Shown piece by piece: positions 3,408-5,951 of a stretch of DNA of 29,874 nucleotides. The notes under the pieces were generated by a model. The model was not told the DNA's origin, ran no database searches, and saw only the letters and a list, made by a program, of their open reading frames with translations. Position numbers and translations under genes: made by a program. This DNA comes from a virus: UHGV virus genome UHGV-0109415. One strand, 5' to 3'. Numbering within the stretch: the stretch's first letter is position 1; every line of letters begins with the position of its first letter.

Positions 3408-3679
3408 GTATTCGTATTGAAATTGGCGAACGTTATGTCGTTACCAGTGACAGCTTTCAGTTTATTCTCCACGAGAAAAAGAGAGCGGAAAGCGGTAAAA
3501 ACGCCGGTCAGGAATGGCTGGCGGTGGTTGGTTATTATCCGAAATTAAGCCAGCTCGTTTCCGGCCTGATGCATCACGATATTCTGACCGGAAGCGCAAA
3601 GTCTTTTGCTGATTTAAACGTGCAGGTTGAGCAACTCAGCAAGCGTTGTTCAGAGGCTTTTGGCTCATATGGCCGTTAA
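3404..3679 (+). CDS. Hypothetical early protein
   Basis: 91-aa ORF with GGAGAA ribosome-binding site, coupled to the previous gene. Confidence 0.5.
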   Translation: MSIRIEIGERYVVTSDSFQFILHEKKRAESGKNAGQEWLAVVGYYPKLSQLVSGLMHHDILTGSAKSFADLNVQVEQLSKRCSEAFGSYGR

Positions 3680-4250
3680 AGCCTCCGGGCGTTTTGTCCC
3701 TCCGTCAGCATTTGCCGCAGGCACCGGTAAGATGTTTACCGGTGCTTATGCATGGAACGCGCCACGCGAGGCCGTCGGGCGCGAAAGACCCCTTACACGT
3801 GACGAGATGCGTCAGGTGCAAGGTGTTTTATCCACGATTAACCGCCTGCCTTACTTTTTGCGCTCGCTGTTTACTTCACGCTATGACTACATCCGGCGCA
3901 ATAAAAGCCCGGTGCACGGGTTTTATTTCCTCACATCCACTTTTCAGCGCCGTTTATGGCCGCGCATTGAGCGTGTGAATCAGCGCCATGAAATGAACAC
4001 CGACGCGTCGTTGCTGTTTCTGGCAGAGCGTGACCACTATGCGCGCCTGCCGGGAATGAATGACAAGGAGCTGAAAAAGTTTGCCGCCCGTATTTCATCG
4101 CAGCTTTTCATGATGTATGAGGAACTCAGCGATGCCTGGGTGGATGCGCATGGCGAAAAAGAATCGCTGTTTACGGATGAGGCGCAGGCTCACCTCTATG
4201 ATCATGTTGCTGGCGCTGCACGTGCTTTCAATATTTCCCCTCTCTACTGA
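3669..4250 (+). CDS. A: Probable N-terminal portion of replication initiator A, ending at an in-frame TGA (4248-4250)
   Basis: First ATG at 3669 (the ORF-track start at 3627 is TTG). Same reading frame as the downstream A ORF at 4272; 3669..5951 is 761 codons including the terminal stop, close to the 761 aa I recall for P2 gpA. Confidence 0.5.
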   Translation: MAVKASGRFVPPSAFAAGTGKMFTGAYAWNAPREAVGRERPLTRDEMRQVQGVLSTINRLPYFLRSLFTSRYDYIRRNKSPVHGFYFLTSTFQRRLWPRIERVNQRHEMNTDASLLFLAERDHYARLPGMNDKELKKFAARISSQLFMMYEELSDAWVDAHGEKESLFTDEAQAHLYDHVAGAARAFNISPLY

Positions 4251-4271
4251 AAAAAATACCGTAAAGGGCAG

Positions 4272-5951
4272 ATGACCACGAGGCAGGCATATTCTGCCAT
4301 TGCCCGTCTGTTTAACGATGAGTGGTGGACTCATCAGCTTAAAGGCCAGCGTATGCGCTGGCATGAGGCGTTACTGATTGCTGTCGGGGAGGTGAATAAA
4401 GACCGTTCTCCTTATGCCAGTAAACATGCCATTCGTGATGTGCGTGCACGCCGCCAGGCAAACCTGGAATTTCTTAAATCGTGTGACCTTGAAAACAAGG
4501 AAACCGGCGAGCGCATCGACCTTATCAGTAAGGTGATGGGCAGTATTTCTAATCCTGAAATTCGCCGGATGGAGCTGATGAACACCATTGCCGGTATTGA
4601 GCGTTACGCCGCCGCAGAGGGTGATGTGGGGATGTTTATCACGCTGACCGCGCCGTCAAAGTATCACCCGACACGTCAGGTCGGAAAAGGCGAAAGTAAA
4701 ACCGTCCAGCTTAATCACGGCTGGAACGATGAGGCATTTAATCCAAAGGATGCGCAGCGTTATCTCTGCCGTATCTGGAGCCTGATGCGCACGGCATTCA
4801 AGGATAATGACTTACAGGTCTACGGTTTGCGTGTCGTCGAGCCACACCACGACGGAACGCCGCACTGGCATATGATGCTTTTTTGTAATCCGCGCCAGCG
4901 TAACCAGATTATTGAAATCATGCGTCGCTACGCGCTCAAAGAGGATGGAGACGAAAGAGGAGCTGCGCGAAACCGTTTTCAGGCAAAACACCTTAACCGG
5001 GGCGGTGCTGCGGGGTATATCGCGAAATACATCTCAAAAAACATCGATGGCTATGCACTGGATGGTCAGCTCGATAACGATACCGGCAGGCCGCTGAAAG
5101 ATACTGCTGCGGCTGTTACCGCATGGGCGTCAACGTGGCGCATCCCGCAATTTAAAACGGTTGGCCTGCCGACAATGGGGGCTTACCGTGAACTACGCAA
5201 ATTGCCTCGCGGCGTCAGCATTGCTGATGAGTTTGACGAACGCGTTGAGGCTGCACGTGCCGCCGCAGACAGTGGTGATTTTGCGTTGTATATCAGCGCG
5301 CAGGGTGGGGCAAATGTTCCGCGTGATTGCCAGACTGTCAGAGTCGCCCGTAGCCCGTCGGATGACGTTAACGAGTACGAGGAAGAAGTCGAGAGAGTGG
5401 TCGGCATTTACGCGCCGCATCTCGGCGCGCGTCATATTCATATCACCAGAACGACGGACTGGCGCATTGTGCCGAAAGTTCCGGTCGTTGAGCCTTTGAC
5501 TTTAAAAAGCGGCATCGCCGCGCCTCGGAGTCCTGTCAATAACTGTGGAAAACTCACCGGTGGTGATACTTCGTTACCGGCTCCCACACCTTCTGAGCAC
5601 GCCGCAGCCGTGCTTAATCTGGTTGATGACGGTGTTATCGAATGGAGTGACCCGGAGGTCGTGAGGGCGCTCAGAGGTGCATTAAAACACGGTCGGAGAA
5701 CGCCAAGTCGTCAGCAAAGAAACGGAAGCCCGTTAAAACCACATGAAATTGCACCATCGGCCAGACTGACCCGGTCGGAAAGAATACAAATTACCCGTAT
5801 CCGCGTTGACCTTGCTCAGAACGGTATCAGGCCGCAGCGATGGGAGCTTGAGGCGCTGGCGCGTGGCGCGACCGTAAATTATGATGGGAAAAAATTCACG
5901 TATCCGGTTGTTGATGAGTGGCGGTGGTATATAGTTGATGGTAGGCGGTGA
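4272..5951 (+). CDS. A: Rolling-circle replication initiator (P2 gpA-like), catalytic portion
   Basis: 559-aa ORF with HUH-type motif (TPHWHMMLF) and paired-tyrosine motif (AGYIAKYISKNIDG) typical of superfamily-I Rep nickases; position as P2 A. Confidence 0.85.
   Translation: MTTRQAYSAIARLFNDEWWTHQLKGQRMRWHEALLIAVGEVNKDRSPYASKHAIRDVRARRQANLEFLKSCDLENKETGERIDLISKVMGSISNPEIRRMELMNTIAGIERYAAAEGDVGMFITLTAPSKYHPTRQVGKGESKTVQLNHGWNDEAFNPKDAQRYLCRIWSLMRTAFKDNDLQVYGLRVVEPHHDGTPHWHMMLFCNPRQRNQIIEIMRRYALKEDGDERGAARNRFQAKHLNRGGAAGYIAKYISKNIDGYALDGQLDNDTGRPLKDTAAAVTAWASTWRIPQFKTVGLPTMGAYRELRKLPRGVSIADEFDERVEAARAAADSGDFALYISAQGGANVPRDCQTVRVARSPSDDVNEYEEEVERVVGIYAPHLGARHIHITRTTDWRIVPKVPVVEPLTLKSGIAAPRSPVNNCGKLTGGDTSLPAPTPSEHAAAVLNLVDDGVIEWSDPEVVRALRGALKHGRRTPSRQQRNGSPLKPHEIAPSARLTRSERIQITRIRVDLAQNGIRPQRWELEALARGATVNYDGKKFTYPVVDEWRWYIVDGRR

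Follow-up and report, generated by a model that had tools for sequence, protein, structure and literature searches.

The window, a stretch of 29,874 nt analysed here at its full length, is a contig from a human-gut metagenome and carries a P2-like prophage of E. coli that is integrated beside cpxP. The 3′ end of this gene forms the left flank of the prophage, as it does in the E. coli isolate assembly GCA_028436285.1. The early operon has the gene order cox, B, orf80-83, and A, with A following B and orf80-83. Gene A encodes the P2-type replication endonuclease gpA, for which an uninterrupted frame of about 760 codons is expected throughout the family. Instead, the frame on the plus strand is broken by a TGA at codon 194. 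A 193-codon open reading frame (ORF) starts with the ATG at 3669 and ends with this TGA at 4248–4250, and a 559-codon ORF runs from the ATG at 4272 to 5951. As the original prediction had it, the two ORFs share one frame and are split by the TGA and seven sense codons, KKYRKGQ (4251..4271, plus strand). Read through the TGA, gene A has 760 sense codons, which agrees with the predicted length close to that of P2 gpA (761 residues) and equals that of STYP1 gpA (760 residues).

Homology to gpA extends over both sides of the stop. The 5′ part of gene A (codons 1–193, 3669..4247, plus strand) shares 97–99% identity with intact gpA proteins at their N-termini, and the 3′ part (codons 202–760 and the natural stop, 4272..5951, plus strand) contains the catalytic core and matches Phage_GPA. 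In a tblastn alignment, residues 1–760 of STYP1 gpA match positions 3669–5948 of the window with 98.9% identity, running unbroken across the TGA and meeting exactly one stop. At the nucleotide level, gene A is 97–98% identical over its full length to the A genes of P2, L-413C, and STYP1. Across the stop site, the gpA proteins of STYP1, L-413C, and E. coli Trh52 read ...PLYWKKYRKGQMT..., and codon 194 is TGG in all three. The mutated base is position 4250, at which a change from G to A converts the Trp194 codon TGG to a premature opal stop TGA (4248..4250, plus strand). The stop sits within the invariant W-K-K-Y-x-K-G motif of gpA, and the seven codons that follow (4251..4271) are part of the same motif and no intergenic spacer. 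The ATG at 4272 is the ordinary internal codon of Met202.

Position 194 is Trp in 131 of 131 homologue clusters, none of which has a stop at this codon. Among the sequence collections, the TGG pattern, which served as control for the TGA scans, matches at least 120 IMG/VR contigs, while exact and degenerate TGA patterns have no match in the viral, GTDB-genome, and JGI-metagenome collections. Together with the three reference relatives and the 131 homologues, this contrast identifies TGG as the ancestral state. Among the complete E. coli RefSeq genomes, none exceeds 99.0% identity over the 301-bp flank.

The conserved domain of gpA is cut by the stop. In intact STYP1 gpA, Pfam family PF05840 (Phage_GPA) is matched over profile positions 1–321 with 413.8 bits. 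The downstream ORF matches positions 66–321 with 368.9 bits (cut-off 31.4), and residues 133–191 of the upstream ORF match positions 1–56 with 21.8 bits, which taken alone is under the cut-off of 31.4. Phage_GPA covers residues 133–462 of the intact protein, with the stop at about profile position 57–65 of 321. An AlphaFold model built on a 35-sequence alignment is of low quality as a whole (mean pLDDT 47), and we used its local confident segment alone. This sole segment, helical and covering residues about 125–225 (pLDDT 63–86), spans residue 194. No relative with a solved structure was found in the PDB.

The catalytic motifs and the origin of replication all lie downstream of the stop. Specifically, the HUH-type motif H399-W-H401 is encoded at 4863..4871 and the paired tyrosines Tyr450 and Tyr454 (GYIAKY) at 5016..5030, both on the plus strand, and the two His and two Tyr residues are invariant in the 35-homologue alignment. 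Tyr450 and Tyr454 are the catalytic active-site pair in P2 gpA. The placement of these motifs in the downstream part had been predicted. The origin lies within gene A at 5497..5557 (plus strand), where 60 of 61 bases are identical to P2 around its annotated "nick site at ori", and the equivalent of the nick site is at about 5527. In the P2 record, A is annotated as an essential gene whose product nicks at ori. Since the stop falls within the Phage_GPA domain and precedes the HUH motif, the tyrosines, and the origin, its position is probably damaging. On sequence grounds, gene A here is a disrupted copy, that is, a pseudogene or nonsense allele, which by normal decoding would not give a working gpA.

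Aside from gene A, the prophage is well preserved. All other 38 STYP1-equivalent genes are uninterrupted. The prophage in GCA_028436285.1 differs from positions 1–20786 of the window at two sites alone, having G at position 4250 (TGG) and a 1-nt deletion at 7367, and from positions 15391–29819 at the sole site 29638, which is synonymous in ogr. As a near-identical isolate prophage still has TGG, the mutation is very recent. Just downstream of ogr, the window ends with the left end of IS150 (29820..29874, plus strand), which comprises the junction and the start of insJ and is a 100% match to the transposase region of the IS150 family as found in E. coli genomes. This insertion, with its junction at 29819/29820 near the right end of the prophage, is a second lesion and is absent from the wild-type relative. 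The assembly GCA_973786725.1 has the same tape-measure protein as the window prophage. Disruption of A by stops or frameshifts also occurs in other P2-like prophages, at about 9 of 120 IMG/VR loci among the matches listed, including an independent W97-to-TGA change.

These data are best explained by a recent G-to-A nonsense mutation (W194opal) in gene A of an otherwise intact prophage, which probably left it replication-defective. A nonsense mutation was among the options of the original prediction, and it is the one that fits a TGG-to-TGA change at an invariant Trp codon of an integrated prophage with a near-identical wild-type relative. Translation of gpA would halt after 193 residues, inside the Phage_GPA domain. 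P2 gpA acts in cis, and trans complementation fails for the classical conditional-lethal nonsense mutants of its gene. Since gpA is essential for P2 rolling-circle replication and cis-acting, the prophage should be unable, or nearly so, to replicate after derepression. It would then persist as a harmless passenger inherited vertically, and immunity and the Fic cargo gene should remain available to the host. A P4-like satellite should likewise still be able to draw on its late genes, because activation of P2 late genes by P4 does not require P2 to replicate (PMC12239096). The allele has reached at least two sequenced samples and gained at least one further single nucleotide polymorphism (SNP), and so was not immediately purged. 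A prophage-disabling allele would be expected to persist in this way if it is neutral or beneficial, and such persistence is compatible with retained function as well. As gene A shows no additional decay, a test for relaxed selection has no power.

The alternative that survives best is that the opal codon leaks. Of the stop codons, UGA leaks most in E. coli, and an A as the next base, as found here, would make for a relatively weak termination context in this species. Under this explanation, Trp-tRNATrp would misread the UGA at roughly the percent level to give wild-type 760-residue gpA, and the prophage would be weakened but not dead. A certain amount of full-length wild-type gpA is to be expected, since the codon is leaky and the stop replaces a Trp codon, so that readthrough by tRNATrp restores the native residue. 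As gpA is a catalytic initiator, even this small amount might sustain genuine, if reduced, replication and the production of phage. In line with this, every other phage gene is intact, and the allele occurs in runs of two ENA projects. The percent-level figure, however, comes from E. coli K-12, whose release factor RF2 is a variant with poor termination, so that less leakage is to be expected in natural isolates. In K-12, UGA readthrough is about 2% at 37 °C and 4% at 25 °C, and is ascribed to competition between Trp-tRNATrp and RF2 (PMC10570021). No stimulatory structure follows the stop (fold z = −1.8; no Rfam match), and the stop is conserved in no relative, so that any leak would be accidental and not something that evolved. 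That the same prophage has an IS150 insertion fits decay. We therefore consider a leaky, hypomorphic gene A unlikely, albeit with a real chance of being correct. An extension of this idea is less likely still, namely that the opal codon serves as an attenuator and not a kill switch, holding gpA at about 0.1–4% of normal, permitting rare replication and transmission at minimal host cost, and that the allele spread between human hosts for that reason.

The original prediction also offered a real two-polypeptide arrangement, in which translation terminates at 4250 and reinitiates at the ATG at 4272, and the resulting fragments of 193 and 559 residues cooperate or the C-terminal fragment works alone. 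An in-frame ATG does lie 21 nt past the stop with AAGGG before it, the catalytic motifs and the origin are wholly in the downstream part, and reinitiation after nonsense codons is generally known in E. coli. The homologues argue against such an arrangement. The best 120 homologue clusters are all single proteins of 695–779 residues with 91–100% query coverage, and the 193-residue part matches the N-termini of proteins of 621–823 residues. A search with these 193 residues found no stand-alone N-terminal protein ending at the stop position, and the short matches inspected keep the Trp and extend beyond it. Nor was any homologue found that begins at the equivalent of 4272 downstream of an unrelated gene, the finding that had been named beforehand as decisive for separate genes. 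The break falls inside the Phage_GPA domain, the invariant motif, and the confidently modelled helical module, and residues 194–201 would be missing from both fragments. Residue 202 is not conserved as Met, being Met in 113, Ile in 17, and Leu in 1 of the 131 homologues, hence Ile or Leu in 18 of 131. Moreover, just 3 nt separate the Shine-Dalgarno-like sequence from the ATG, which is itself base-paired in the fold predicted for this region. We regard a functional split of gpA as highly improbable.

Equally hard to sustain is the suggestion that the true sequence is TGG and the TGA an error, for example a miscall at the boundary between GG and a run of six A residues. The change does lie where a G pair meets an A run (TGGAAAAAA to TGAAAAAAA), and the nearest isolate carries G at 4250. 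The exact 193- and 559-residue products are, on the other hand, on record on 6–8 contigs, every one of which has the TGA. The contigs come from ERR1190875 (PRJEB12124), ERR2017558 (PRJEB21528), and JIEZ17-1_SAMEA104142128, the last of which may share its sample with ERR2017558, and their assemblies have three origins (MEGAHIT k127 via ENA submitters, Logan, and a third scaffold set). Two independent assemblies of ERR1190875 agree. A further SNP, at 3303, sets one TGA copy apart, so that the copies do not all represent a single sequence. The identical base in assembled runs of two ENA projects makes a sequencing error, which the original prediction had allowed for, very unlikely, and the TGA allele is real.

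Programmed recoding at the UGA, by selenocysteine insertion or evolved readthrough, has in its favour that the codon is UGA and in frame, and nothing further. It is effectively refuted by the absence of the stop from all relatives, every one of which has TGG, including a near-identical prophage with the same downstream sequence; in addition, an Rfam scan of 4150–4450 with E values up to 10 gave no match, SECIS families included, no tRNA gene, and hence no suppressor tRNA, was found in the window, and the downstream fold (4236–4330) is not significant (z = −1.79, with 11 of 200 shuffles folding at least as well). Programmed readthrough, ranked lowest in the original prediction, was accordingly dropped.

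The preferred reading, a recent loss-of-function allele, bears mainly on annotation. A single disrupted gene A (pseudogene, W194opal) should take the place of two separate genes for the two ORFs, and although its gene set looks complete, the prophage should be classed as probably replication-defective. An integrated element with a lesion in an essential gene, probably disabling, set against an intact close relative, has the features of early decay. The locus gives a clear view of how prophage inactivation begins in nature: only a nonsense mutation, an insertion of IS150, and a single synonymous substitution set the prophage apart from a near-identical intact relative. The event is ordinary early prophage decay of a known kind, and adds no new mechanism.

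Compared with known systems, the gene A product corresponds to P2 gpA, an HUH-type rolling-circle initiator with the origin within its own gene. The HUH motif, the tyrosines, the origin, and the place in the operon are the same, while gene A here, unlike that of P2, is broken by an opal codon at Trp194. The lab nonsense mutants of P2 gene A likewise have a premature stop in this essential cis-acting gene, and the expected phenotype is no phage DNA replication. The present allele differs from them in being a natural one from gut metagenomes, opal and not amber, and known here from its sequence. The Q-beta A1 protein is made by natural UGA readthrough by tRNATrp in E. coli. Any leak at codon 194 would resemble this case and the readthrough reporters (PMC10570021) in having UGA followed by A in E. 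coli and the same misreading tRNA, whereas the stop here arose by a new mutation and is no signal that has been conserved and put to use, so that readthrough would be a passive leak. A further parallel is with the defective or domesticated prophages of Enterobacteria, whose decay starts with point mutation and IS insertion; the window prophage has a probably disabling mutation in an essential lytic-cycle gene and an IS150 insertion, while a near-identical relative is intact. In comparison with those prophages, the window prophage is at a very early stage, with its other 38 genes intact and no further decay in A.

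The two ORFs of gene A lie in one frame on the plus strand, as the original prediction had it. The upstream ORF starts with the ATG at 3669, has 193 sense codons, and ends at the TGA at 4248-4250. The downstream ORF runs from the in-frame ATG at 4272 through 559 codons to its end at 5951, and only the TGA and seven sense codons (KKYRKGQ) separate the two. Reading through the TGA gives 760 sense codons from 3669 to 5951, in agreement with the predicted length. Homology across the TGA is unbroken: a tblastn alignment of residues 1-760 of gpA from Salmonella phage STYP1 to the window has 98.9% identity and contains a single stop. 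By megablast, at least 80% of the 3669-5951 stretch is covered in 76 phage records, and identity is 95-99% in 77 of the 86 records matching it. Among them are those of P2, L-413C, and STYP1, in which a single gene, annotated gpA or 'nicking at origin of replication', takes up the whole stretch. Ca. 1,600 of 5,426 complete E. coli genomes have a match, annotated 'replication endonuclease', to the 301 bases spanning the TGA.

STYP1, L-413C, and E. coli Trh52 read across the codon as ...PLYWKKYRKGQMT..., and the sole change within it is G to A at 4250, which turns TGG into TGA. Position 194 is Trp in all 131 gpA homologues inspected (74-98% identity), within an invariant W-K-K-Y-x-K-G stretch. 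At least 120 IMG/VR contigs match a degenerate DNA pattern that has TGG here, and equivalent TGA patterns have no match in IMG/VR, one genome per GTDB species, or the JGI metagenomes. In a near-identical prophage of the E. coli isolate assembly GCA_028436285.1, the A gene is intact (760 aa, WP_272479699.1). Over window positions 1-20786, the isolate differs only at 4250, where it has G, and at 7367, where a T-run of its Fic gene lacks 1 nt; over 15391-29819, the sole difference is at 29638 and synonymous in ogr. As gene A has no change other than that at 4250, the sequence comparison marks the W194* mutation as very recent; for the same reason, a test for continuing selection on the downstream part would have no power. 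The reading favored at the outset, a nonsense mutation in a prophage gene A, thus holds.

The Pfam domain Phage_GPA spans residues 133-462 of intact gpA. Its profile positions 1-56 fall in the upstream ORF and 66-321 in the downstream ORF, so the break is inside the family domain. The stop precedes the HUH-type motif H399-W-H401, the paired Tyr450/Tyr454, and the ori, in line with the original placement of the catalytic motifs; the ori within gene A (window ca. 5527) has 60 of 61 bases identical to P2 at the annotated nick site. No solved structure is related to gpA by sequence. An AlphaFold model based on 35 homologues is poor overall (mean pLDDT 47), with one confident stretch, a helical module at ca. 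125-225 (block pLDDT 63-86). This module includes residue 194 and lends weak local support to the position being a damaging one.

In the P2 record, A is described as an essential gene whose product makes the site-specific nick at ori. According to the classical literature, gpA is cis-acting, and P2 must replicate to express its own late genes. The stop at codon 194 would remove everything needed for nicking. Once derepressed, the prophage should fail to initiate rolling-circle replication and, we propose, could not complete a lytic cycle. The mutation leaves immunity intact, along with the late genes and the Fic cargo. Helper capacity for P4-type satellites is probably kept, because these satellites switch on P2 late genes without P2 replication (PMC12239096).

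The block may be incomplete, as UGA is leaky in E. coli through competition of Trp-tRNA-Trp with RF2, and reporters in K-12 showed readthrough of ca. 2% at 37 °C, rising to 4% at 25 °C (PMC10570021). Misreading at codon 194 would insert the native residue, and some authentic gpA is therefore expected. We consider it rather improbable that such a leak supplies gpA for replication to a functionally meaningful degree, and any leak would be a chance by-product of the mutation, with no evolved signal behind it.

An error of sequencing, another option raised originally, or of assembly is an unlikely source of the A at 4250. By exact look-ups of the two ORF products, the window is contig k127_140901 (30,018 bp), trimmed by 72 bases at either end, from the human-gut run ERR1190875 (PRJEB12124). 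The same TGA is present in the independently made Logan assembly of this run, in a contig of ERR2017558 from another project (PRJEB21528), and in scaffold JIEZ17-1_SAMEA104142128, which may share its sample with ERR2017558. An error is hard to reconcile with runs of two ENA projects, with three assembly sources, and with TGA-bearing copies that differ by at least one further SNP. A run of N aside, the scaffold and the window are separated by a single SNP, at 3303 (C in the window, T in the scaffold; P41S in the DksA/TraR-like zinc-finger protein orf82), showing that the TGA-bearing lineage has already diversified.

A natural two-polypeptide arrangement using the ATG at 4272 is not supported either. 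The best 120 homologue clusters (90% identity) are all single proteins of 695-779 aa with 91-100% query coverage. In a full HMMER search, the 193-aa N-part matched at the N-terminus of 621-823-aa proteins. The remaining matches are short; the four of ca. 200-230 aa that we inspected keep the Trp and extend 6-25 residues beyond it, so they do not end at this point. Met202, encoded by the ATG, is not fixed: 18 of 131 homologues have Ile or Leu instead. Recoding, including programmed readthrough, finds no backing, as the window has no tRNA gene, 4150-4450 has no Rfam match even at E up to 10, 11 of 200 shuffles fold at least as well as the RNA downstream of the TGA, and the wild-type isolate prophage has TGG with identical downstream sequence, as all 131 homologues have W.

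W194* is hence an opal nonsense allele that arose recently in a well-known gene, and the prophage bearing it is in the earliest stage of decay. Disrupted A genes, with stops or frameshifts, occur in ca. 9 of 120 sampled IMG/VR P2-like loci; one of these, in another P2-like prophage (IMGVR_UViG_2802429249_000006), has an independent Trp97-to-TGA change. Among further A genes (L077, L100, L138, and L112), several have frameshifts or multiple stops. Such mutations should be neutral for the host or bring it an advantage. The split gene A is real and was correctly described but is not novel; the allele has its use in annotation and makes a neat example.

The element is an integrated prophage of E. 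coli, a host with the standard genetic code, since the contig's left flank is the cpxP 3' end exactly as in the isolate, and related genomes have the prophage between cpxP and fieF-pfkA. The left junction directly follows the cpxP stop codon (window 1-170 plus positions 1-72 of L007, an assembly of ERR1190875), and many E. coli genomes have related prophages at the cpxP/fieF site. The match to the isolate breaks off at 29819/29820, where the window crosses into the left end of IS150 and takes in the start of that element's first ORF (29820-29874, with 72 nt further in the source contig; L014 14430-14556). IS150, absent from the isolate prophage, is inserted just downstream of ogr inside a hairpin, between AAAGCCCCTCAGTCG and AGGGGCTTT. 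The insertion is a second lesion in the same prophage; it cuts off the right side of the contig and accounts for the break at this point.

The other 38 STYP1 genes all have full-length, stop-free equivalents in the window, and called gene lengths agree with the P2 gene set. Where P2 has tin/old, the window prophage carries a 368-aa Fic-domain protein (6322-7428, minus strand), annotated in STYP1 as a VbhT-like AMP transferase. The identical protein is listed in 422 blocks of a public collection, and the isolate's deletion at 7367 shortens the N-terminus of the isolate's own version, giving 346 aa. In an invertible tail-fibre region (21658-23133), a DNA invertase gene on the plus strand (22534-23133) adjoins two tail-fibre or assembly ORFs, at 21658-22098 and at 22120-22512, that run the opposite way (minus strand). 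Tail-fibre genes H and G are only 33-43% identical to those of STYP1. The C-type repressor (1221-1514, minus strand) has only 58% identity to its STYP1 counterpart, whereas the flanking int and B have 98-99%; this divergence indicates a different immunity type, apparently gained by mosaic exchange.
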